Shown one piece after another: positions 5,176-27,967 of a stretch of DNA of 28,173 nucleotides. The notes under the pieces are model-generated. The model searched no databases and had not been told where the DNA came from. It saw only the letters and a program-made list of their open reading frames with translations. Numbering within the stretch: the stretch's first letter is position 1; every line of letters begins with the position of its first letter. The stretch is taken from NCBI GenBank assembly GCA_023136205.1, contig JAGLRQ010000077.1, positions 1-28,173 of the forward strand, given 5' to 3'. The stretch comes from Candidatus Auribacterota bacterium (GTDB lineage Bacteria; Auribacterota; UBA6266). The position numbers were made by a program, and so were the translations under genes.

Positions 5176-7200
5176 ATGCAAATTGCCAAGAAGTATAAAA
5201 TAGAAGTTAAGAAAGACCACCTTTCAAAAATCGCATCAGGTAGTCCGGAGTTTGCATTGGCCGAGTTGATTTGGAATGCGCTAGATGCAGATGCCAACAA
5301 CATTGAGGTTTGTTTTCATGAAGGACCATTAGGTGTGGATGAAATACTTATTCGAGATAACGGTACCGGCATTGCTTATGATGAAGCCGAAAATCTATTT
5401 GTTTCTCTTGGAGGTTCATGGAAAGCCCAACAACAGAAAACAAAAAAGGGGCGCTTCCTGCATGGGAAAGATGGTGAAGGACGGTTTAAGGCATTCATTT
5501 TAGGTAGGATAGTAGATTGGAATATCATCTATAAAAAAGATAGCCAATTTTTGAGATATACAATTGAAGAGTGTTCCGATTCACTAGATGAATTTAGTTT
5601 AAGCGCTGAGGAAGGAATCATTAATAAACAAACCGGCGTTGAGGTACATATTACTGAGTTAAATAAGAAATTTCATGTGTTGAACAAAGAAAAAGCTATT
5701 GAAAAACTAACCCCAATATTTGCCTTATACTTGAGCAATTATCCATCCGTCAAACTAAGTATTGATGGAACACCAATCAACCCAGATGAGGTCATCCTCC
5801 ACAAGAATAGTTTTTCCTTAGATACTATCAAGGAAGATGGCTCTTTACACCAAGTAGAACTCGAAGTCGTTGAATGGTGTGAAATTAAAGAACGAGAGCT
5901 CTGGTTCTGTAATGCACATGGATTTCCTTTAGAGGTTTATAGTAAACAGATCCGAGGCATTGGCGAATTTGGATTTAGCGGTTATATAAAATCAACGTAT
6001 ATCCAGCACCTTCATTCCCACGGTTTGTTAACATTAGGGGAGTTAAATAAAAATCTAAACCAAGCATGTGAACAAGCTGTTAAGAAAATCAAAGATTATT
6101 TCATAAAAAGAACCCTTGAAAGCGCTCGAGATCAGCTGGAAAAGTGGAAAGAAGAAAAAGTATATCCTTATGTAACTGAACCAGCAACACCTGTTGAGGT
6201 AGCTGAAAGACAAGTATTCGATATCATCGCTATCAACATTAATCAAAGCCTCCCGGATTTTGAGCAGACTGAGAAGAAAACGAAAGCATTTCAATTACGA
6301 ATGCTTCGGCAAGCCGTAGAAAAAAGTCCAGAGGAACTACAGATAATAATAGGCGAAGTTTTACAACTTCCTAAGAAAAAACAAGAACAACTAGCTGAAT
6401 TACTTAAGGATACATCTCTATCCGGGATAATAAGTGCATCTAAACTTGTTACCGATCGACTTAAGTTTCTCTCCGGACTTGAACACATGTTATTTGATAA
6501 AGACGTTAAGAAGCATTTTAAAGAAAGAACCCAATTACATCGCATATTAGCTGATAATACATGGGTTTTTGGACATGCGTTCTCCTTGTCCGTTGATGAT
6601 AAGTCTCTTACCGAAGTCCTTCGCAAGCATATCAATTTATCAGGAAATAATTTACTTGTTGATGCCCCAGTTAAACGGCTTGATGAAAGCATTGGTATTG
6701 TTGATCTTATGTTGTCTCGATCCATTCCAAGAAACCATTCTAATGAACTCGAACATCTTGTAGTTGAGCTGAAAGCTCCGCGTATTAAAATAGGGCAAAA
6801 AGAAATAGAACAAATTAAGAGTTACGCTTTTGCAGCGGCTGGGGACGAGCGGTTTCAAGGCCTAAAGACACGTTGGCATTTTTGGGTAATATCAAATGAC
6901 ATTGATAATTATGCTGAAATAGAGCTAAGTCAGGAGAAGTATGAGGATGGTATCATTTTTAAAACTACAAAAAATATTGACCTAACAATATGGGTTAAGA
7001 CATGGTCACAGCTATTACAAGAGAATAAACACAGACTGGAATTTATTAAAGAAAAGCTAAATTACAACATAGACCGTGAGGATGCCCTTGCATATCTAAA
7101 GAAAACATATGAGGAATATACTCAAGGTCTTATTTTTCCACAAAAAGATGGGCAGAGTGCAGTAAATATTGACAAACAAAAAGAGACAGAAAAGCTTTAG
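5176..7200 (+). CDS. GHKL-superfamily ATPase (MORC / HATPase_c_3-like) with a C-terminal PD-(D/E)xK-type nuclease-like domain (674 aa)
   Basis: N-box ELIWNALDADA, G1 box ILIRDNGTGI and G2-like GKDGEGRFKAF near the N-terminus. The C-terminal region has LHRILADNTWVFGH ... GIVDLMLSR ... EHLVVELKAPRIKIGQKEIEQIKSYA (D...E-x-K arrangement). Confidence 0.65.
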   Translation: MQIAKKYKIEVKKDHLSKIASGSPEFALAELIWNALDADANNIEVCFHEGPLGVDEILIRDNGTGIAYDEAENLFVSLGGSWKAQQQKTKKGRFLHGKDGEGRFKAFILGRIVDWNIIYKKDSQFLRYTIEECSDSLDEFSLSAEEGIINKQTGVEVHITELNKKFHVLNKEKAIEKLTPIFALYLSNYPSVKLSIDGTPINPDEVILHKNSFSLDTIKEDGSLHQVELEVVEWCEIKERELWFCNAHGFPLEVYSKQIRGIGEFGFSGYIKSTYIQHLHSHGLLTLGELNKNLNQACEQAVKKIKDYFIKRTLESARDQLEKWKEEKVYPYVTEPATPVEVAERQVFDIIAININQSLPDFEQTEKKTKAFQLRMLRQAVEKSPEELQIIIGEVLQLPKKKQEQLAELLKDTSLSGIISASKLVTDRLKFLSGLEHMLFDKDVKKHFKERTQLHRILADNTWVFGHAFSLSVDDKSLTEVLRKHINLSGNNLLVDAPVKRLDESIGIVDLMLSRSIPRNHSNELEHLVVELKAPRIKIGQKEIEQIKSYAFAAAGDERFQGLKTRWHFWVISNDIDNYAEIELSQEKYEDGIIFKTTKNIDLTIWVKTWSQLLQENKHRLEFIKEKLNYNIDREDALAYLKKTYEEYTQGLIFPQKDGQSAVNIDKQKETEKL

Positions 7201-7998: not shown

Positions 7999-9525
7999 TT
8001 ATACAATACTATATAAGGCTTCATTGCTTTCCAAATGCCCTAAAAATTCTTCAATTGTTTTTGGAGAGATGAAAAGATTATCCGTTTGCCTCACATAGTC
8101 AATTTGCTTTACAGAATCACTAAAAATACTTGGTGCAACAAAATAGCACATTGAATTTTTTGCTTTCTTTCCAAATTCTTCCAAATGCCTGCTAATAGGC
8201 CATACTTCCATCATCGTTTGTGTCCGCCCCTCGGACATTGTTACTTCAATCAAAATTCCGTTTACATCCTCAAAACACTCAATATCACCAGTATTGCCAA
8301 CACCTCCCGCTGTTGATGTAGGAATACCCTCATCATCAATAGGATAGTTTGGGATTACTTTCACATCTGGAAATTTTGATTTGACTGCTAATGCAGTCAA
8401 AAACTCAAGTCGTGTTGGATTAGAGAGATATTTTAAAGTCTCATCTTTACTTAATCGTTTATTTGATAAATTCAACATTTCTATTTTTATTTTATCCCAA
8501 GCATAAACACCCACCCACTTTGTTAAGAATTTATCTTGTTCCGAAACAGAAACTGCTTTTGGTACAAATGAAATAAGATTTTTATCAACTATTGAGATGT
8601 ACTCAAAATAACTTTCTTCCGTGTCGTATTTTTTGTATTCAGAATAATTTCCTAAAACATAATCAACTTTTTCTTGCTCGTTTTTGTTTATATCAATAAA
8701 TCGTCCACCACCACGCAAAGAAATAAGCCCAGTTAATCGCATTTTTCTGATAAACTCATCAGGGTAATCAACCAAAATAGACTTATCATCTCTAACGATG
8801 TCTTTACCCTCCATGATTTCATCTCTGCAAATTTCAGCTATGACTTCCCAACTTGGAGAATAGCCAAAATCTTGCCGAAGCTTCTTGATCCTTTGATACA
8901 ACTTTTTTGCATCGTTGTCTTTCCAATAAATTATTAAAGGTAATTCTAGTTTAGAAATTCCTGCATCATTACATTCATCATCTGCGTTGAGCTTAGTAAT
9001 TACTTGAAGCAATAAAACCAGTGGCACATTTTCATTTAAAACTCTGCGAAAAGGACTATTGCTCTGATATTTAACAAAAGCATTCAGGAATGCTTGTTGC
9101 TCAAATTCTGGATGTTCATTATCAACAAGCTTCAATCCTATTTCGGAAAATCGTATTTTCTCCCCCGATTTGTAAAAAACAAAACCTAACTCTTTGGCAA
9201 TTTTGAACCATGTATCAAAACGAGAAGGCCATCCCCAACTAAATCCTGCCTCTTTATGATTTTGTGGATTATCTTCTAAAACTTTGGAAACGTCTTTATC
9301 TGTCAAAGGCTCTTTTGTTTTGATTTTCTTTTTTACACTTATTGACAATCTTGTCGGTCTGTACAGTCCAATTCTAATTATTTCGCCTGCAATTTTTTCT
9401 GCTAATTCGTTATTAAGAATTTGCCCGTCATAATCTTTCAAGATGCCAAGAAACCACTTTAACCGCTCAGGATTTCTAAGTGTTGTGGTAAATAATAATG
9501 GCTTGTATTTTGATTTGTTAGGCAT
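7999..9525 (-). CDS. AlwI/BstNBI/MlyI/PleI-family type IIS restriction (or nicking) endonuclease (508 aa)
   Basis: N-terminal LLFTTTLRNPERLKWFLGILKDYDG resembles the family N-terminus. C-terminal PTSTAGGVGNTGDIECFEDVNGILIEVTMSEGRTQTMMEVWPISRH matches, from my memory of N.BstNBI, P.THAAGNQPDMEIIYEDFIVLGEVTTSKGATQFKMESEPVTRH. Confidence 0.8.
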   Translation of the reverse strand: MPNKSKYKPLLFTTTLRNPERLKWFLGILKDYDGQILNNELAEKIAGEIIRIGLYRPTRLSISVKKKIKTKEPLTDKDVSKVLEDNPQNHKEAGFSWGWPSRFDTWFKIAKELGFVFYKSGEKIRFSEIGLKLVDNEHPEFEQQAFLNAFVKYQSNSPFRRVLNENVPLVLLLQVITKLNADDECNDAGISKLELPLIIYWKDNDAKKLYQRIKKLRQDFGYSPSWEVIAEICRDEIMEGKDIVRDDKSILVDYPDEFIRKMRLTGLISLRGGGRFIDINKNEQEKVDYVLGNYSEYKKYDTEESYFEYISIVDKNLISFVPKAVSVSEQDKFLTKWVGVYAWDKIKIEMLNLSNKRLSKDETLKYLSNPTRLEFLTALAVKSKFPDVKVIPNYPIDDEGIPTSTAGGVGNTGDIECFEDVNGILIEVTMSEGRTQTMMEVWPISRHLEEFGKKAKNSMCYFVAPSIFSDSVKQIDYVRQTDNLFISPKTIEEFLGHLESNEALYSIV

Positions 9526-9529
9526 AATT

Positions 9530-10435
9530 TTAATAGTTAGTAATCAAAACTTCTTTGATTTTTTTCTTTCCGTTATTATGATAACTGATGTAATTACTTT
9601 TAATATTGTGGACTTTATATTTTTTCATCCACTTAATCAATAAGTCATTTTTACTTCCGTTGTAATGAGTTACATTTGACAAAGCAAATTTAACACCTTT
9701 TTTGTTTAATTCATCAATCAAATTAAGTAAATCTGTCTCTGCTTTCTCATTCCATAGTTTATTGTACTCACTTGAAGTAATAATATATGGCGGATCAATA
9801 TAAACAAAGTCATTCTTTGAGTATTCATTTTTCTCAAAGAACTTTCTAAAGTCCTTTATTGTAAATTTAATTTTTTTGTCTATGACAAAATCAAAATAGT
9901 TATTAAGTGCATTTACTACATTCTTATTGAAGTCAACATTCCCAACAGGTAAATTAAATTTACCGCCGCCATTGAATCGTAGCATTCTGTTAAAACCATA
10001 GATTAACAAAATGTATAAAATAAGAGGATCATTTTTTTTGTTTTTATTTACGCAAATTCGCAGTTTCTCATAGCCCTCTTTATTAAACCTTGCGTAATAA
10101 GTTTTTTTAAATTCTTTTTTGAGAGAATCTGGAACGATATCTTTTTTGTATGAGTGAGATAATTTATATTTATGAATAATTTTCTCAACATCTTCAAAAA
10201 AATTCTCTGGATTTTTTGCATTAGAAATCAAAAGCTTGTGTATGTTCACGAGATGTTTGTCTATGTCATTTAAAAAATACTTATTTGCTTTAATATTCAA
10301 AAATACCGTACCTCCTCCCGCAAATGGTTCGTAAAAACTATTTATTTCTTGCGGAAACAAATCTAAAAGTTGTCTCATTAGCCGATATTTATCCCCAACA
10401 TAAAAGAGGGGTGATCTTTTTATTTCTTTATTCAT
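9530..10435 (-). CDS. Dam-family (D12 class) N6-adenine DNA methyltransferase (301 aa)
   Basis: FYVGDKYRL...YEPFAGGGTVFLN (motif I), FVYIDPPY (motif IV) and ALSN, collinear with E. coli Dam. The start overlaps the upstream gene's stop (ATGA at 10432-10435). Confidence 0.9.
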   Translation of the reverse strand: MNKEIKRSPLFYVGDKYRLMRQLLDLFPQEINSFYEPFAGGGTVFLNIKANKYFLNDIDKHLVNIHKLLISNAKNPENFFEDVEKIIHKYKLSHSYKKDIVPDSLKKEFKKTYYARFNKEGYEKLRICVNKNKKNDPLILYILLIYGFNRMLRFNGGGKFNLPVGNVDFNKNVVNALNNYFDFVIDKKIKFTIKDFRKFFEKNEYSKNDFVYIDPPYIITSSEYNKLWNEKAETDLLNLIDELNKKGVKFALSNVTHYNGSKNDLLIKWMKKYKVHNIKSNYISYHNNGKKKIKEVLITNY

Positions 10436-12240
10436 GATTTTGTGTTTGTTACAAATAAGTATTCCTTGTGATTATTAAAATCAGTATTTCCAGCATTAAA
10501 ATGTCTATAATCTTTTTCAAAAACTTTTGTTTTTCCTTTCTTGCTTAAAATTTTCTTGATTTCTTCAAGTGTAATTTTATTTTTTGATGAATTACTTTTT
10601 GATTCATAAGTATTGTTATATGACACCACTAAGTAGTTTGCATTTATATCATTGACTAATTCCGCAAATCTATCTTTTGCACTTACTCGACAATAATCAC
10701 TCATGTTTTCTGGTTCTGGCTTCAACGCTACTCCGTGCAACTCTGGCTTATCCCACTTTGTAAGTGTTTCAAGCACATGATAAAACCTGCTGTATTGCCG
10801 TGAATTATAAGGCGGATCAATATAAACAATATCTGTCTGAATTTGTTTTGCGAACGAATTTGCGTCTTCTCTAAAAATTAACACCTCTTTGGCTTCAATG
10901 GGGTTTATTGGTCGCATAAAAAAGTTATCGTCAACAAATTCTTTTTTGAAATAGGCATCATAATGCCCAACAGTATTTGCAATTTTATCAATGGAATAAA
11001 GCAAAGATGAAATTAACATGCTATATTCTCGCTTAGTAAGATTTTCTCGGTTTTTTTCAATGTTCTCTCGGATAAATCCAATAATTTTTGCTGAATTTTT
11101 TGAGAAATATTTACCACCAAAATTTATTGAAAAATAGTTTTCATCCAAATCTTCTCCGTTGATATTATTATAGTCTCTTATAATAATATTAGTTTTTTCT
11201 TGGTTCCACTTACCATTGTCAAAAAATGCTTTATAAATGGCTTGATTTGAGTGTAGAAAATCATTCAAAATGATTTTGTCAAAATGTTTACTTGCTACAG
11301 CGGCAACAACTCCGGTTCCAGCAAAAATATCTGTAAATGATTTTCCCTCGCATTCTTTATCAAGAATAGAAAAAATCCACTCTATCAGTTTATGTTTATT
11401 GCCAATATATCTACGATTTTGTAATTGAAAATGATTTTTTTTTATTTGCGGAACATGAAAATAAGTTTCTTGAATTTTTTCTGCACTTATCTCATATGCT
11501 GGCTTTTCAATTTCTAGCAAGTCAAAAAGTGTTCCCTGTACTCCCTCTGCAACATAATCAAGATTTTTATTTTTATCTCCTAGTTCTTTAAAAAAACTAT
11601 AGTGCTTATTTCCTGCAACAATAATAAAATCAGTAATCTCTATTCCATTTATTTTTCCTGCATAAGAAATTCTATCTACAATACTTTTATCCTGCTTGCT
11701 AGGATTTGGATTTCCTGTTGGATGATTATGAACTAAAATAATTGAGGAAGCGTTCAGACGAAAAGCAGGTTCAAAAATTTCTCTTGGGTGAAAAAGAGTT
11801 TTATCTACAAGCCCCACACTAATAACCTCTTTTTTAATAAGAACATTTCTTGCATCCAAATATAAACAAACAAGATATTCTTTTTTCTTATCTCTCAAAT
11901 CATAGGTAAGCGATAGAACATCTTGAGATTTTTTTATTGTAATTTCACTTGATTGACCATCTTCATAAAACCTTTTGACTAAAGAAATTGCCGCTGCAAT
12001 TTGCAATGCTTTTGCTGGTCCAATTCCGTCAACGGTCTGCAAATCTTTGACTGTTACATCCAAAAAAGTTTTGCTAAATTTATTAATAATTTGTTGTGCA
12101 AGTTTTTGAACATTTTTTCCTTTTATTCCGCTTCCAAGAACAATTGCCAAAAGATCACTTTTTGAAAGTGCTTGTGGACCTTTTTTGAGAAATTTTTCTC
12201 GCGGTCTATCAACTTTTGGAATATCTTTAATCTTTGTCAT
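10432..12240 (-). CDS. fusion protein: N-terminal RadC-like JAB/MPN domain + C-terminal D12-class N6-adenine DNA methyltransferase (602 aa)
   Basis: Res ~1-220: DRPREKFL, LLAIVLGSG, VDGIGPAKALQI (HhH), HPREIF, LVHNHPTGNPNPSKQD (RadC JAB motif). Res ~270-602: RRYIGNKHKL, DIFAGTGVV (motif I), IVYIDPPYNSRQY (motif IV), VVSYNN. This is a single uninterrupted ORF. Confidence 0.85.
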   Translation of the reverse strand: MTKIKDIPKVDRPREKFLKKGPQALSKSDLLAIVLGSGIKGKNVQKLAQQIINKFSKTFLDVTVKDLQTVDGIGPAKALQIAAAISLVKRFYEDGQSSEITIKKSQDVLSLTYDLRDKKKEYLVCLYLDARNVLIKKEVISVGLVDKTLFHPREIFEPAFRLNASSIILVHNHPTGNPNPSKQDKSIVDRISYAGKINGIEITDFIIVAGNKHYSFFKELGDKNKNLDYVAEGVQGTLFDLLEIEKPAYEISAEKIQETYFHVPQIKKNHFQLQNRRYIGNKHKLIEWIFSILDKECEGKSFTDIFAGTGVVAAVASKHFDKIILNDFLHSNQAIYKAFFDNGKWNQEKTNIIIRDYNNINGEDLDENYFSINFGGKYFSKNSAKIIGFIRENIEKNRENLTKREYSMLISSLLYSIDKIANTVGHYDAYFKKEFVDDNFFMRPINPIEAKEVLIFREDANSFAKQIQTDIVYIDPPYNSRQYSRFYHVLETLTKWDKPELHGVALKPEPENMSDYCRVSAKDRFAELVNDINANYLVVSYNNTYESKSNSSKNKITLEEIKKILSKKGKTKVFEKDYRHFNAGNTDFNNHKEYLFVTNTKS

Positions 12241-12242
12241 AG

Positions 12243-13091
12243 TTATTTTTTATAAATTGCTTCAAGCGTTTTTTTATCTTTTGTTTTCCATTTCTGCCAT
12301 CCACTTGTGGAGTTTCCTAAAATAATATCCGAAGCCGCACTCGGACTGTTAAAAACATAATCTTTTATAAAAATATACAGATTTTCATCTTTTTTTTCTA
12401 AATAACCATTAGAGATTAGTTTATCAACACTTTTCTTGTTCCTTTCTGCAACAGCATTAGAAAATTGAGTTGTAGCCGTTGAATCTTTATACACAACAAA
12501 CCCCTCGTTTATCATTCGTCCAGTTGCTAATGCTTTCTTTCCTCCACAGGTAAACAACGGATTTGAAGTGTCAGTTTGTTCCTTTGATGTAATTTCTTGC
12601 AGAATTGTATATCCAACGGTTGTAAGTAATAATTTTAAATTGTTTAAAAATTCTTCCATTTCAGCAATATCTGCTTCAGACAGAGAGGGTAAGAATGATT
12701 TTGTGCTATTTTCTAAATCAAACCTTTTTACTTGTGAGGCTATTTCTATACATCGACTTTCAAGATATTTAACATGGGCTTTTGTTAAATTGTTGTCTTT
12801 ACTGACAAATGCTATTGCGGTGCGCCAAAAATCTTTTGAACTGTCATGAGTAGTTAATCTATTGCCCAAATTTTCAGCTTCTCCAATATATGCAGTAGAT
12901 AGTAGGGCCTCTTCATTTTCTTTTCCAATCAAAAAATACACTGCTGGTTTGTTGCAATCAGATCGTTGTTTAATATCTTTGAGTTTATTTCTAGGAATAA
13001 CAATTGCTTGGCCAACCCAATTACTTAATTCTGCGGTTTTCAATCCGTTTGGTTCTCCATCAACTAAAAATATTTTTATTGTTTTTGCCAT
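12243..13091 (-). CDS. GIY-YIG nuclease family protein with DUF4357-like C-terminal domain (282 aa)
   Basis: PAVYFLIG...TAYIGEAENLGNRLTTH (GIY...YIG...R...H). C-terminal FVVYKDSTAT...FNSPSAASDIILGNSTSGWQKWK is typical of DUF4357. The stop lies 2 nt before the RadC::MTase start codon. Confidence 0.75.
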   Translation of the reverse strand: MAKTIKIFLVDGEPNGLKTAELSNWVGQAIVIPRNKLKDIKQRSDCNKPAVYFLIGKENEEALLSTAYIGEAENLGNRLTTHDSSKDFWRTAIAFVSKDNNLTKAHVKYLESRCIEIASQVKRFDLENSTKSFLPSLSEADIAEMEEFLNNLKLLLTTVGYTILQEITSKEQTDTSNPLFTCGGKKALATGRMINEGFVVYKDSTATTQFSNAVAERNKKSVDKLISNGYLEKKDENLYIFIKDYVFNSPSAASDIILGNSTSGWQKWKTKDKKTLEAIYKK

Positions 13092-13265: not shown

Positions 13266-14153
13266 TTAGCTCACATAGTCATAAGCTTGTTTTATCAAGC
13301 GCATTGCATAATCCAGCTGGTCAGCAGAATTAATTTTAAAAACCCTGTTTAATTTACCATAACCATATGTTGCAGGTACCGCCTTAGTCAAATTCTGAGA
13401 GTCATCAATTTTTTTATCACCCATTTTAATGAAAATCTTCAAGCCATCCTTTTGTATGTTCGGGCTTACAAAAGTAGAAGTAGTCCTATAATCACAATAC
13501 CATATGCCAACCTTTTCCCAAACATCATCAGAAATTGCCAATATTCTCTCACGCAATTTTTCGAATAAGTCTCTTATTTGTGGCGTAGCCTTGTTCAAAA
13601 GCCCATCCAATGTGTATTCCTTAAGTTTCCTGCCTTTTACAGGCTCTACACCTTCTTTGGTAGCCCGTTTTTGCCTGACAACATTTACATCCTCAACATT
13701 AAACAAGTCACCATAAAAGGAATATTTCTTCAACTCAACAGAAGGAATCATCTGATTAATAGCAGACAACTCCTTTCCATTAAAACTCTTCGCCACAATA
13801 ATGAGCCTCGGTTCAACACCCCAGTTCACTTCAAGCTTGCCCTTAAATTTTTCTTTCACAATAAGATTAATAGTCCGCTTATTTTGCTTAACCCAATTCA
13901 GATAAAAAAGCCCCTGGATTATAGCACTCGAATCCTTAATCCACTTGTACTCAATAACAACAGGCACATTATCTTCATCTATGCCTAAAGTATCTATCCG
14001 GCCATTAGGAATAGGATACTGCCTCTCAAGGAGCTTAATACCAGTCAAATCTTCAAGATTATTCTCCATAAGCTTCTCAAGTTCAGCCTCATACCTAAAC
14101 TCGCGACTATTAACCTTCTCAACCTTACTATCTTTCAATCTGAACAAAGGCAT
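13266..14153 (-). CDS. NucS/DUF91-like PD-(D/E)xK nuclease domain protein with DUF5655-like C-terminal domain (295 aa)
   Basis: NGRIDTLGIDEDNVPVVIEYKW (D...E-x-K) within the N-terminal ~130 aa. The C-terminal WYCDYRTTSTFVS...GLKIFIKMG...INSADQLDYAMRLIKQAYD resembles DUF5655. SD GGGGGTG lies upstream of ATG 14153. Confidence 0.6.
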   Translation of the reverse strand: MPLFRLKDSKVEKVNSREFRYEAELEKLMENNLEDLTGIKLLERQYPIPNGRIDTLGIDEDNVPVVIEYKWIKDSSAIIQGLFYLNWVKQNKRTINLIVKEKFKGKLEVNWGVEPRLIIVAKSFNGKELSAINQMIPSVELKKYSFYGDLFNVEDVNVVRQKRATKEGVEPVKGRKLKEYTLDGLLNKATPQIRDLFEKLRERILAISDDVWEKVGIWYCDYRTTSTFVSPNIQKDGLKIFIKMGDKKIDDSQNLTKAVPATYGYGKLNRVFKINSADQLDYAMRLIKQAYDYVS

Positions 14154-23526: not shown

Positions 23527-26500
23527 CTATTTCTTCGGCGTTGTAGCACTATCTAAATTAGAATAACTCGAATCACCGGCAGTATTAAAAGCTCTAACTC
23601 TATAAATATAAGTCTTGCCCCGTTTCAGGCCACCATCGGTAAAACTGGTAATATCCGCGGAGATAACCGCGATTTCCTCAAACAATTTTCGCTCCCTGCG
23701 TTCTATCTTAAAACCATCCTCATTATCAGACTTGTCCTGCCAGGTTAGGTTAATTTGACTTTTGGATATGGCCGTTACCGAAAGATCCGACGGCGCGGCT
23801 GGAGGAATAATAATATTGTCATTAACCGTAACTATACAACTATCAGTATCAACCGCTCCATTGTTATCTGTCACGGTTAAAACTACAGTATAATCATCAG
23901 CCACACTGTAGCTATAGGCCGGAGTTATTCCCAAGCCGATAGCCCCATCGCCAAAATCCCAGATGTAATCCACAATACTTCCATCCGGATCTATAGAGCC
24001 AGAACCATCAAAAACTACCAGATCATCAACCAGTACTGTTTGATCTATACCGGCATCAGCAACAGGAGGCTGGTTCAAAGTTGATTTTATATATAAACCC
24101 GTATGTCGAGCATCATGAAGGAATTGAGCCCATTCGATAGTTGCCTGGTCATAAAAGGATAATGGCAAATCCCAAACAAATACGTTAAAATTGTAGTCTA
24201 CCCAAATAATTTCGATTTCTCCATCCCCGTCAACATCAGCCAAAGCCGGTGTACTTCTCGGTGACGGGCCTAAATTGGATGCCCTTAAAACAGGAAGGGA
24301 CGCATTATAGGGCATCATGTTAAGATACGGTGAATTATCTGAAGCAATAATTTCCATACATCCGTCATCATTAACATCACCTATTGCCGCTGCCCCAAAA
24401 CCATAATATTGGCCCCAAGCATTTATCCAGACATTTCTTCTAGATAGCACCTTTGGCCATGTCTCATCAACTAACGTTCCATCATAACGCAAGGCATAAA
24501 GAATACTATTGGCCATATCGTCTTCCGCTCCAATAATGATTTCGGGATTTCCATCAGCGTTTATGTCTCCCAAGGTCGGCGGACTTATTTCTACCAATGT
24601 ATTGGTAATAAGATTTGAAGGGTTAACCGGCCAACCGGCCATGTCGCTGCCATCATGATGAATAACATAGACAATTTTATCATTTGAAGAAGATACAATA
24701 ATCTCAAGATCCGCGTCTCCGTCTAAATCCCCTAAGACTAAAGATACCCAATAAGTTTGCAATATCGGCCCAATAACTTCATATGTGCCATTCGGGTTCA
24801 AAACATGAATACGCGAAGCATTGTAGGGGCCTGTAACAACCACAATTTCTTTCTCGCCATCATTATCTACATCACCAACCGCGGCATTGGTCATAGTGTA
24901 GTAGTTTCCTAATTCAACCGGCCACCCGATTAAAGAATTTCCATTGATATCTACAACATTAATTTTCCCATAGGTGGATACCAGGACTATATCCAACTGG
25001 CCATCACCATTAATATCTTCAATAATCGGTTTCCCAGCTAAATTAAGATTGGGCCATCCGTATACTAATGTCCCATCATGATTCCAAACATATTTACCTT
25101 TTCCTGAAACTATTTCCATAAAACCATCCCCATCTAAATCAGCCGCAACCGGACTATCCTGGACAGCAGCATCTACTTCCTGCGGCCATCCGGGCAAAAA
25201 CTGACCATCATCCGTAAATATATATACCTGCTTGCCATAACCAATGATAATTTCATCTGTTCCATCATTATTTATATCGGCCACCGTATGAGTACTGAAT
25301 TGCAGCACACCAGGACCTGAATAATAAGGCGGGATTTTCTGCGGCCATCCGTTTTTAAGCAGGGGGTCCAGATGAATATGTATCTCATAAATATCTGTCA
25401 ACGAGCCAAATTTAGTAAGCCGCAAAGTGTATATGCCGGCAGTAGAAATAACACTGGAATCAAAAGTCGCTAAAAGCCCCTCAACTACCGGCAAATTTCC
25501 TTCGTTGCTTAAAATAATACCCTCGTCTGTAACAGGGCCAATGGCATTTCCACTATTATTTGTAAGAAAATACTCGACTCTATAGTTTATAAAGTTTGAA
25601 TCACAGGCTGTTCCTCTTATTTCAATACTATTATTCTGAGCACTTAAAAAATCCCGTTCTTTCGGAGATGTTATATATGTGTTTTGAACAGTAACTAAAA
25701 TCCTATCTTCATAACGATTGTTCAGAGTATCAATTACCGTCACTTTTATGGTATAGTCACCGTCGGTTACGAACGACGTATCCCAATTCGGAACTAAAAT
25801 ATTGTTCTCGACAACAGAAGTTCCACTGTTTAGCATTGTCCACGTCCGCGGGACATTCCCTTCTCCGCATTCAACTTTAAAGCTGGCAAAACTGCTGCCG
25901 CTAGCTGTTCCCTTTATATTGACAATTTCGCTTACAAGCGCGTATGCCGATGGTGCGGAAATTTTTGCCGTGCAAAATGAATTAACTGTAAGCGCTTTAT
26001 AAGCGTTAATCCGGCCAAAGCCAAAATTCAAATCCCAACCAGTATCTCCCAGGTCATCAGCAGAAACTCTAATTATCTGTCTCACCTCTTCATTCGTAAG
26101 GTTCGGATTTTTAGAAATCACTAGAGCAGCTAAACCACTAACATGAGGACAAGCCATGGAAGTTCCCGCCTGCCTATAATATTTCTCTCCAACTACCAAC
26201 TCACTATACGCTTTACCCTCAGCCCGTAAAGATAAAATATTGCGTACCGGTTCATAATTCGGAGGAGGGTTGCTAATACCTGAACCTGGCGCGGCAACAT
26301 CTATTTTTACGCCCCAGTTCGAAAAATATGATTTTGCATCATTGTGGTCGCTTGAAGCCACGGTAATAACATTTGTAAACCCCGCCGGACGGTAATTAGC
26401 TACATCCGCATTGCTATTGCCGGCAGCAGCTACAATTACACACCCAAAAGCATGAGCATAATTAACCGCGTCTTCAAGGATTGGAGAAGATCCCACTCCC

Positions 26501-27711
26501 CCCCAGGAATTACTAAGGACATCAGCACCGTTATCAGCCGCGTATTTAATAGAATTAGCTAATTGTGAATCATAACCTGAACCATTATCATCTAATCCTT
26601 TAACCGCCATAACCTTAGCCTGGGGAGCAACACCAATTATCCCTATTGAATTATTACCGACAGCGGCAATTGTTCCCGCACAATGAGTCCCATGACCGCT
26701 TAGTGCGTCTATGGGATCATTATCATCATAAGAAAAATCCCAACCCTTATCATCATCTATATAGCCGTTACCATCATCATCGAGGCCATTATCAGGTTCT
26801 TCTCCGGGGTTAGTCCAAAGGTTGGCCGCTATATCTTCATGATTATAATCAATGCCAGAATCAATTACCGCAACTATCATTCCACTGCCCTGAGCAATGT
26901 CCCAGGCTGGTTCACAATTTAATTTATCCGTTTTCAATCCCCATAAATCACTATAAAGCTGTCCCCAGCTTCCCGTTGAAGCGTAATAAGGATCATCAGG
27001 AACCATAAAAGTTTCATTGATATAGTCCGGTTGGGCATATTCTATATTCGGATCGTCCATGTATCTCGTACAGGCCGCCTCAACATCCATATTCTTTTGT
27101 TCAAATTCCACCCTATAAATATGCCCTAAATAGGGTATTTTGACATTTTTCGGTACGCGTTTAGCGCGGTTGTTGAACCGTTTTTTGTTTTTCTCGTAGT
27201 CTTCAAAAAACTGTTCTTTTGCCTGCCGGCGCCATTGCCCTGCTTGAGTCTTTGAGATATATCCGAACGGTATCTTATCCGCATTACTTTGCCTAAAAAT
27301 CTTCCTCATCCTTTTGACTTTAAATTTTTGGTTAAGATTATCCAAATTAGAATTGCCGGTTATAGTTTGAAAATCCTGACTCCTTTCAATCAATTTCCCC
27401 GCGACAATGCCTACATCCGCGTCATCCTTGAATTTGATAATAATCTTATCCCGGACATAATTAGATTGTTCTTTCTCTCTCTTTAAAACATCAGTTTCTG
27501 ATTTAGATTGTTCTTTCTCTTTCTTTAAATCATCCGTTTCTGATGAGGTTACAAAAAGTATCTGATTTTCACCCTCGGCTATAACCTCAATTTTAAAACC
27601 ATTCTCATTTTTTTCTTCTATCATCTTTGCCCGTAAATCGGGAACAAAGGAAACAGTAATACCACATATTAAAAACAGCCCTAAAATACCAAATCCTGTT
27701 ATCTTCCCCAT
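23527..27711 (-). CDS. S8 (subtilisin-like) serine peptidase with FG-GAP/VCBS-type repeats, a PKD domain and a C-terminal fibronectin type III domain (1,394 aa from ATG 27711)
   Basis: Catalytic triad motifs VAVIDSGIDYNHEDI, GHGTHCAGTIAA and GTSMACPHVSGLAALV. At least 8 Ca-binding-type D.(D/N).DG..EI repeats (DINNDGTDEIIIG, ADLDGDGFMEIV, GDVDNDGEKEIVVV ...). PKD domain: FDGSGSIDPDGSIVDYIWDFGDG...VVLTVTDNNG. Fn3: LTWQDKSDNEDGFKIERRE...YIYRVRAFN. Signal anchor MGKITGFGILGLFLICGITVSF, preceded by AAGGGGG. Confidence 0.9.
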   Translation of the reverse strand: MGKITGFGILGLFLICGITVSFVPDLRAKMIEEKNENGFKIEVIAEGENQILFVTSSETDDLKKEKEQSKSETDVLKREKEQSNYVRDKIIIKFKDDADVGIVAGKLIERSQDFQTITGNSNLDNLNQKFKVKRMRKIFRQSNADKIPFGYISKTQAGQWRRQAKEQFFEDYEKNKKRFNNRAKRVPKNVKIPYLGHIYRVEFEQKNMDVEAACTRYMDDPNIEYAQPDYINETFMVPDDPYYASTGSWGQLYSDLWGLKTDKLNCEPAWDIAQGSGMIVAVIDSGIDYNHEDIAANLWTNPGEEPDNGLDDDGNGYIDDDKGWDFSYDDNDPIDALSGHGTHCAGTIAAVGNNSIGIIGVAPQAKVMAVKGLDDNGSGYDSQLANSIKYAADNGADVLSNSWGGVGSSPILEDAVNYAHAFGCVIVAAAGNSNADVANYRPAGFTNVITVASSDHNDAKSYFSNWGVKIDVAAPGSGISNPPPNYEPVRNILSLRAEGKAYSELVVGEKYYRQAGTSMACPHVSGLAALVISKNPNLTNEEVRQIIRVSADDLGDTGWDLNFGFGRINAYKALTVNSFCTAKISAPSAYALVSEIVNIKGTASGSSFASFKVECGEGNVPRTWTMLNSGTSVVENNILVPNWDTSFVTDGDYTIKVTVIDTLNNRYEDRILVTVQNTYITSPKERDFLSAQNNSIEIRGTACDSNFINYRVEYFLTNNSGNAIGPVTDEGIILSNEGNLPVVEGLLATFDSSVISTAGIYTLRLTKFGSLTDIYEIHIHLDPLLKNGWPQKIPPYYSGPGVLQFSTHTVADINNDGTDEIIIGYGKQVYIFTDDGQFLPGWPQEVDAAVQDSPVAADLDGDGFMEIVSGKGKYVWNHDGTLVYGWPNLNLAGKPIIEDINGDGQLDIVLVSTYGKINVVDINGNSLIGWPVELGNYYTMTNAAVGDVDNDGEKEIVVVTGPYNASRIHVLNPNGTYEVIGPILQTYWVSLVLGDLDGDADLEIIVSSSNDKIVYVIHHDGSDMAGWPVNPSNLITNTLVEISPPTLGDINADGNPEIIIGAEDDMANSILYALRYDGTLVDETWPKVLSRRNVWINAWGQYYGFGAAAIGDVNDDGCMEIIASDNSPYLNMMPYNASLPVLRASNLGPSPRSTPALADVDGDGEIEIIWVDYNFNVFVWDLPLSFYDQATIEWAQFLHDARHTGLYIKSTLNQPPVADAGIDQTVLVDDLVVFDGSGSIDPDGSIVDYIWDFGDGAIGLGITPAYSYSVADDYTVVLTVTDNNGAVDTDSCIVTVNDNIIIPPAAPSDLSVTAISKSQINLTWQDKSDNEDGFKIERRERKLFEEIAVISADITSFTDGGLKRGKTYIYRVRAFNTAGDSSYSNLDSATTPKK

Positions 27712-27967
27712 TTCTTTTCCCCCTTCATCCTTTTTCAAATTATTAGGCTGATTGTAACACATTTCAGACCTCTTCGCAATCCCGGGTATAGACATAGAAC
27801 AGAAGAAGGCCAGACAAAAGTGCTTGAAGTAAGCAGGGCTTGGTAATATGATAATGAAAAGTAAATTTATGTGGTGGAAAATGTGGTACAAGGGCTATTT
27901 TAAGCACAAAATTGACCTAAAACCTCGCTCTCCGTCATTAGGAAACAGGGAAATACAATACCTATTA

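Follow-up and report, generated by a model that had tools for sequence, protein, structure and literature searches.

A RadC module with a clamp-binding-like tail fused to DNA methylases of unrelated restriction-modification systems

Type IIS restriction-modification (R-M) cassettes of the AlwI family are carried by plasmids of cultured bacteria, as in Staphylococcus epidermidis (NZ_CP069955.1) and Leuconostoc (NZ_CP035140.1), where a first adenine methylase (M1), a Dam-family second methylase (M2) and the AlwI-family endonuclease (R) follow each other in this order. A cassette with the same order lies in a stretch of 28,173 nucleotides from a Candidatus Auribacterota bacterium (assembly GCA_023136205.1, contig JAGLRQ010000077.1, positions 1 to 28,173), hereafter the window, and there M1 is preceded within the same open reading frame (ORF) by a complete RadC. 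RadC is among the most widespread bacterial proteins of unsolved biochemical function. Its name as a DNA repair protein is disputed (PMC5512222, PMC3239186), and a 2025 review, which lists only metalloproteases as its structural neighbours, calls its function open (PMC11981726).

Mobile DNA encodes DNA-acting proteins to which the RadC JAB domain has been added as an accessory, with published fusions to HhH, ArdC, primase and DinG (PMC3239186, PMC5512222, PMC11981726). In those mobile-DNA fusions the partners are helicases, primases and anti-restriction modules, whereas the partners found here are type II R-M methylases of three classes encoded in R-M operons. The methylases of polyvalent proteins are different as well, since they are gamma-class, EcoKI/TaqI-like enzymes coupled to SNF2 ATPases; the window protein has two enzymatic domains only, with no type IV secretion system or phage genes nearby, and is not of the polyvalent type. 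The nearest published analogues are the ParB-methylase fusions (Bacillus cereus Bce_0392), in which an adenine methylase likewise carries an N-terminal DNA-processing domain, but the accessory fold is ParB and not JAB. These are typically orphan or phage methylases, and we know of no clamp-like tether described for them. According to a passage in PMC5512222, the ParB domain of such a fusion has been shown to nick DNA. Hence RadC, the D12 methylase and the AlwI-family system are each known, while the RadC-methylase fusion in R-M operons was not found in publications; the literature search likewise brought up neither a report of a clamp-binding motif in a bacterial DNA methylase nor anything relevant on a link between RadC and DnaN.

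The fused ORF of the window occupies positions 10432..12240 of the (-) strand, begins with ATG, has no internal stop in the ORF list of the window and encodes 602 residues. At its N-terminus is a UPF0758_N domain (residues 4-78; 12007..12231, (-); PF20582, 5.2e-23), helical in the AlphaFold2 (AF2) model, which includes the HhH segment VDGIGPAKALQI (residues 69-80) and a weak PF00633 HhH match at residues 62-83. The RadC-type JAB/MPN+ domain follows (residues 103-219; 11584..11934, (-); PF04002, 6.5e-36), matching PDB 2QLC in sequence (2.5e-23) and in fold (Foldseek TM score 0.86-0.87), and the N-terminal 218 residues score 208.9 bits with the RadC equivalog PRK00024 of NCBIfam, above its cutoff of 180. 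The peptide LVHNHPTGNPNPSKQD (residues 169-184) holds the JAMM metal-site motif, H171-N-H173...S181-x-x-D184 (11689..11730, (-)), for which E154 is the upstream Glu. The C-terminal part is a D12 (alpha-class) N6-adenine DNA methyltransferase domain (residues 269-601; 10438..11436, (-); PF02086, 7.4e-34; PADLOC MTase_II PDLC03373, 5.9e-129 over residues 269-601). Its MethyltransfD12 Pfam match covers residues 278-540 with 118 bits against a cutoff of 22; YIGNK lies at residues 278-282, and motif I, FxGxG, here FAGTG (residues 306-310; 11311-11325, (-)), precedes motif IV, DPPY (residues 475-478; 10807-10818, (-)), which ends the string IVYIDPPY (residues 471-478). Between both halves extends a predicted disordered linker (residues 222-280; 11401..11577, (-)): in the AF2 model (mean pLDDT, the predicted local distance difference test, 69) the RadC and methyltransferase domains are folded, and the linker has pLDDT values of 24-38 and no secondary structure. 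A Foldseek search of the two-domain model against PDB found only the RadC half, as 2QLC, and gave no confident solved neighbour for the D12 half. An earlier note on this DNA, made from the sequence alone, had described one uninterrupted ORF joining a complete RadC to a complete D12 methylase and had suggested a structure model; the ORF list, Pfam and NCBIfam bear out that description with all its quoted motifs in place, and the model gives the two folded domains and the disordered linker. Taken together, the profile and motif matches indicate that the ORF encodes a genuine R-M N6-adenine methylase with a complete RadC at its front.

The other two genes of the cassette lie downstream in the same orientation, overlapping or abutting. 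M2 (9530..10435, (-); 301 residues; TIGR00571 dam, 4.2e-43, and PF02086) is a Dam-family N6-adenine methyltransferase that adjoins M1 in the loci of the window's own family (type A, below), and its ATG start overlaps the TGA stop of M1 (ATGA). R (7999..9525, (-); 508 residues; PF09491, 6.9e-43; PADLOC REase_II, 3.4e-125) is an AlwI-family type II(S) restriction endonuclease with a remote match to the BspD6I catalytic domain. On the upstream side, the ATG of M1 comes 2 nt after the TAA of a GIY-YIG/DUF4357 gene. The two junctions are those that the earlier note had read, and so is the shared operon with the endonuclease, in which the fusion is the first methylase of an M1-M2-R cassette.

The M1 proteins of the cultured plasmids are 51-55% identical to the window M1 over residues ~244/271-598, and they are either unfused or headed by a short XRE-like helix-turn-helix (HTH), having neither RadC nor the conserved QxxLF tail that follows RadC in the window protein. 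The best PADLOC profile for M1, with 339 positions, aligns to window residues 269-601. The R-M core is therefore ordinary and the unusual part is what precedes M1; the architecture had been called non-canonical, and rightly, as cultured relatives have the same three genes with M1 unfused. In the S. epidermidis plasmid the XRE-like HTH of M1 (L084:3851-5089, 412 residues) stands where the window protein has RadC, and in about 6-10 related loci, but not in the window, the first gene of the operon is a separate XRE HTH gene of 70 residues. Both observations would fit a regulatory head, that is, a RadC module that binds DNA in the place of the HTH of related methylases and autoregulates the operon like a controller protein. 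We consider this quite improbable: HhH motifs are not sequence-specific in their DNA binding, one and the same RadC module is found in operons whose promoters and genes are unrelated, and a repressor needs no invariant catalytic JAB site.

The fusion is found in two D12 families, type A, which is that of the window and has M2, and type B, a second D12 family without M2. In a cluster search over 5.8 billion proteins, all 120 type-A clusters among the matches listed share the same four Pfam domains, with 77-100% identity and lengths of 602-606 residues; the window protein is among them as 'DNA repair protein RadC [Candidatus Aureabacteria bacterium]'. For type B the fused architecture was likewise present in 120 of the 120 clusters among the matches listed. 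The type-B D12 domain is only ~42-45% identical to the window M1, and an Nt.BstNBI-like AlwI-family enzyme comes directly after it. A scan with one genome per species placed the fusion in about 55 loci of named metagenome-assembled genomes (MAGs), the hosts being Desulfobacteraceae, Gammaproteobacteria, Bdellovibrionales, many lineages of Patescibacteria or the candidate phyla radiation (CPR), Atribacterota, Margulisiibacteriota, Omnitrophota, Planctomycetia, Firestonebacteria and Arcobacter. Complete genomes such as CP064994.1 and OZ253546.1 also have it. Many members lie on contigs of ~7-8 kb, and a small circular plasmid was considered for them and ruled out, since the 19 complete contigs have no terminal overlaps and are hence fragmented assemblies. 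The fusion is not rare: it is abundant in metagenomes and is present in public databases under inconsistent names ('DNA repair protein RadC' or 'adenine-specific DNA-methyltransferase'). No paper on it was found.

In closely related pairs the ratio of non-synonymous to synonymous substitution rates (dN/dS) was 0.003-0.10 for the methyltransferase and 0.02-0.27 for RadC, which is thus under purifying selection. In an alignment of 42 type-A and type-B sequences, the JAB residues E154, H171, H173 and D184 are invariant and S181 is at least 90% conserved. Low dN/dS and invariant JAB residues together rule out a decaying passenger, and point to RadC as a selected and presumably active component of the fused protein. 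It is likewise very improbable that the fusion is an assembly or frameshift join, or a chance functionless fusion of adjacent genes. The window does come from a MAG, and frameshifted or truncated copies of the fusion exist (L058, L060, L063); against this, the ORF is unbroken in more than 240 independent clusters and in about 55 loci of named MAGs, which rules out the assembly or frameshift artefact, and the selection on RadC, its invariant catalytic residues and its repeated reuse on different methylases speak against an accident.

Compared with the housekeeping RadC/YicR (UPF0758; PDB 2QLC), the window module has the same two domains, an intact E/HxH/S/D site and a JAB domain that superimposes with a TM score of 0.86. 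However, it is not a stand-alone housekeeping orthologue, being fused to a methylase, placed in a separate clade and extended by the tail, whereas solo RadCs of ~220-230 residues end right after JAB and share ~41% identity with the methylase-linked clade. When the RadC part was searched exhaustively by itself, a methylase was the C-terminal partner in all of the closest 13 fused representatives, and the ordinary RadCs ranked after the fused ones at 50% identity or less. Methylase-linked RadCs share a mean identity of 56-73% across methylase types, as against 41% to solo RadCs, and at related loci RadC is 57-81% identical to that of the window though joined to different methylases.

These methylases belong to three Pfam classes, D12 (PF02086), C5 (PF00145) and N6_N4 (PF01555), and five kinds of partner enzyme accompany them, AlwI, Nt.BstNBI-like, HpaII, NgoFVII-like and type IIG. 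Type A combines the D12 fusion with the Dam-family M2 and the AlwI-family endonuclease, and type B combines it with the Nt.BstNBI-like enzyme alone. At other loci RadC is fused to a C5-cytosine methyltransferase, with an HpaII-family endonuclease and Vsr as partners (L064) or an NgoFVII-like endonuclease and Vsr (L067), or to an N6_N4 methyltransferase, whose partner is an NgoFVII-like endonuclease (L065, L066) or a type IIG enzyme (L062). Further fusions are to C5-cytosine (P0126, P0127, P0128, P0134) and N6_N4 (P0133) methyltransferases, and L061:1612-4420 encodes a triple fusion of at least 936 residues, RadC with its tail, a C5-cytosine methyltransferase and a C-terminal D12, in an ORF that runs off the contig end. 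The earlier note had tied RadC to one of the two strand-specific methylases of a type IIS system, a link that is not specific, since the same RadC module is also found on C5 and N4/N6 methylases of unrelated R-M systems.

The nearest neighbours of a given RadC cross these types, with 92% identity between L034 (type B) and L007 (type A), 90% between L061 (C5) and L033 (type A) and 92% between L040 (type B) and L069 (type A). In such pairs 80-100% of the residues are identical until about residue 250 and only 20-45% beyond it, the break lying right after '...LFDLLExEKPxY', so that near-identical RadC modules (90-92%) are found on methylases only ~43% identical. As read from these alignments, the exchanged unit is RadC plus a short variable spacer plus the conserved tail, and recombination has placed it on the methylases of at least six unrelated R-M systems in uncultured bacteria. 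Given this exchange among methylases of unrelated systems, the role of the module must be generic, that is, independent of methylation chemistry, target and partner nuclease.

In two C5 systems the RadC-methylase genes are followed by very-short-patch repair genes, vsr, at L064:3624-4028 beside the HpaII-family endonuclease and at L067:2857-3264 beside the NgoFVII-like one. Vsr genes are usual beside 5-methylcytosine systems. Their adjacency to the two C5 fusions could be taken in favour of repair or clean-up in cis, in which RadC would remove damage or stalled complexes made by its own methylase (trapped methylase-DNA, aberrant methylation), by analogy with a replisome-coupled DNA-dependent metalloprotease. 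The module would suit such a task, joining a zinc hydrolase to a DNA-binding HhH domain and a clamp-like motif, and DNA methylases are the only partners among the closest 13 fused representatives. Yet N6-adenine methylases, whose reaction involves no covalent intermediate, account for most of the fusion partners, RadC offers no biochemical precedent and a literature search on a protease or crosslink role for RadC found nothing relevant; we would give repair in cis only a slight chance.

Some loci depart from the common arrangement. In L068:4465-5920, RadC with its tail stops without a methylase, and the overlapping next ORF (249 residues) is nuclease-like by motifs; that contig has masked N runs. 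In five type-A loci (L008, L012, L024, L032, L044) the endonuclease is only ~27% identical to the window R, although still AlwI-family by Pfam in L012, while M1 and M2 are 57-88% identical to those of the window; here the nuclease gene appears to have been swapped beneath conserved methylases.

The tail at the 3' edge of the portable module (11494..11556, (-)) reads Y229-VAEG-V-Q235-G-T-L238-F239-DLLEIEKPA-Y249 in the window protein and was missed in the earlier note. Its clamp-like motif, with the core QGTLF (11524-11538, (-)), is held by the peptide DYVAEGVQGTLFDLLE. After the JAB domain of all fused proteins the consensus is Y-[VI]-[AS]-[DE]-G-x-Q-x-[TS]-L-F-[DN]-L-L-E; Q-x-x-L-F is present in 261 of 262 unique tails, and in the 42-sequence alignment Y229, Q235, L238, F239 and Y249 are invariant, with G233, two residues ahead of Q-x-x-L-F, nearly so. 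The tail is absent from the 11 solo RadCs examined, which end after the JAB domain. In RadC-less type-A M1 variants a similar peptide occurs near the N-terminus, within the first ~25 residues (QDKLFEVLE in L044, QTSFF in L052, QRDLF in L058). The L052 variant (L052:5875-7914) joins M1 and M2 in one ORF of 679 residues on a Bdellovibrionales chromosome, where no neighbouring gene matches an endonuclease; this ORF, which would resemble the fused two-domain type IIS methylases, may be an orphan or a derivative in decay.

A conserved peptide within a linker that is predicted to be disordered is typical of short linear motifs carried on flexible tethers. Such a peptide, Q..LF in a flexible region, is characteristic of clients of the beta sliding clamp (polymerases, MutS, Hda, insertion sequence transposases), whose positions 1, 4 and 5 the window family matches. 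The clamp-binding consensus is Q-phi-x-L-F (QL[S/D]LF), with positions 1, 4 and 5 the most important ones, and the motif of B. subtilis DnaE is QMGLF (bioRxiv 10.64898/2026.05.27.728225); natural variants include QMGLF and QLSFF (bioRxiv 10.64898/2026.05.27.728225; PMC9690074). Some tails of the family read QLSLF, QLNLF or QLTLF. Judged by sequence, the agreement of the putative motif with the clamp motif is good at the critical positions 1, 4 and 5. The clamp clients differ in preferring an aliphatic residue at position 2, where the tails of the window family usually have G or A, and clamp binding is here putative.

The leading mechanism that these sequences suggest is that methylase and RadC are tethered, in a generic manner, to clamp-marked DNA, although we hold it at somewhat short of even odds. 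In this proposal, the M1 of a mobile AlwI-family cassette has acquired a portable N-terminal RadC module composed of an HhH DNA-binding domain, a JAB zinc hydrolase and a flexible tether with Q-x-[T/S]-L-F. With QxxLF bound to the beta sliding clamp and the HhH domain to DNA, the methylase and the RadC hydrolase would be concentrated on clamp-marked, newly synthesised DNA; protective methylation would then keep pace with the endonuclease. The clamp binding itself, the benefit to the R-M system and the substrate of the JAB site are the parts of the proposal that we infer. Use of the clamp by mobile elements is known for transposases (PMC4549789), and DNMT1-PCNA is a eukaryotic precedent for a methylase on the replication clamp (PMC9690074). 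The broader proposal, that RadC with its QxxLF tail is a clamp-docking accessory module which bacteria and mobile R-M systems put on DNA methylases of any class, is more tentative.

Several points weigh against clamp docking. Hemimethylated DNA is normally already protected, so that the gain from replisome coupling is not obvious for an R-M methylase. In ~76% of the tails, G or A takes position 2 of the motif in place of the preferred aliphatic residue, a change that weakens binding in known motifs. The conservation covers ~21 residues (Y229-Y249), longer than a typical clamp motif, and the segment may therefore serve a different partner or an additional purpose. RadC-less versions of the cassette exist (L044, cultured plasmids), and therefore the module, dispensable there, would improve basic R-M function and not enable it.

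The JAB site and the tail could also be connected in another way, the JAB metalloprotease cutting the fusion within the conserved tail. Such self-processing would set the methylase free, perhaps with QxxLF at its new N-terminus, or would tune the methylase level versus the endonuclease. The JAB/MPN+ enzymes that have been characterised are peptidases, RadC-like domains find metalloproteases and not nucleases in structure searches (PMC11981726), and peptidase domains process polyvalent proteins (PMC5512222). In the family itself, the nearly invariant G233 precedes the motif by two residues and the RadC-less variants start close to the motif. On the other hand, comparative analysis has argued that RadC-type JABs lack the groove for a ubiquitin-like tail (PMC5512222), the tail is not docked into the JAB site in the AF2 model and the HhH domain indicates a DNA-related role, all of which makes self-processing improbable.

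The three-gene AlwI-family cassette clearly moves horizontally between phyla, serine recombinases lie near it in about 8 related loci, and many of its hosts are CPR/Patescibacteria. This mobility favours a role in establishment, in which the RadC module would act on single-stranded or newly entered DNA during transformation or conjugation, so that cassette DNA and the new host chromosome are methylated before the endonuclease builds up, or imported DNA is processed; the QxxLF tail would then bind another host factor. In several Gram-positives radC is competence-induced, and the DpnII system has DpnA, a single-stranded DNA methylase that protects incoming DNA. Nevertheless, searches of 72,556 plasmid and 50,697 phage records gave no match over 80% of the fusion, genes for conjugation or competence were not observed beside the cassettes and the invariant QxxLF peptide is left unexplained. 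We regard a helper for incoming DNA as unlikely, though it deserves more weight than self-cleavage of the fusion.

The genes upstream of the fusion vary. In the window these are the GIY-YIG (weak) + DUF4357/RAMA-like gene (12243..13091, (-)), which matches the PADLOC candidate system PDC-S14, and a NucS_C-like + DUF5655 gene (13266..14153, (-)), which matches candidate system PDC-S18. The operon setting of the earlier note stands for M1-M2-R but not for the GIY-YIG/DUF4357 gene: as an occasional neighbour that matches the separate PDC-S14 and is upstream of the fusion in only 5 related loci, one of them a decayed remnant, it is ruled out as an obligatory operon partner. A PDC-S18 homologue, 31% identical, is directly upstream of the fusion in L039. 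In three loci such a gene sits between the XRE HTH gene and the fusion, PDC-S14 in L024 and L083 and PDC-S18 in L039, which suggests that the PDC-S14 and PDC-S18 genes insert into the same operon. The G+C content is 0.27-0.34 in the 8-13.5 kb region of the window versus 0.37-0.42 in its flanks. The cassette surroundings, with candidate defence genes, recombinases and low G+C, are consistent with a mobile defence island.

On the other side of the cassette, a 674-residue protein (5176-7200, (+)) has an N-terminal GHKL-type ATPase (HATPase_c_3) and an HSDR_N_2-like region. It weakly matches both the BbrUII/HgiDII restriction-enzyme family and the N-termini of MutL, and is probably another defence gene flanking the cassette. 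A 1454-residue secreted-type protein (23527-27891, (-)) with S8 subtilase, FG-GAP repeats, PKD and fn3 is unrelated to the fusion. The window contains 49 GATC sites versus ~99 expected under a maximal-order Markov model, about 2-fold fewer, which hints at GATC-directed restriction pressure in the source organism; k-mer depletion gave no specific depletion of GGATC or GAGTC in the 28 kb, too little sequence for inferring a recognition site.

A distinct RadC clade, kept by selection and with its catalytic site intact, has thus been repeatedly recombined onto methylases of unrelated restriction systems together with the same peptide in a flexible tether. This portable module gives RadC a testable functional context and yields concrete, cheap experiments, and hundreds of entries labelled 'DNA repair protein RadC' are actually R-M methylases. 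If clamp docking is true, these enzymes would be functionally analogous to DNMT1-PCNA and, among prokaryotic methylases, the first with a physical link to the replisome, and R-M systems would have a new way to coordinate methylation with replication. It would also give RadC its first physical context, with a near-universal hydrolase brought to DNA that has just been replicated and possibly acting there on the DNA or on proteins bound to it.

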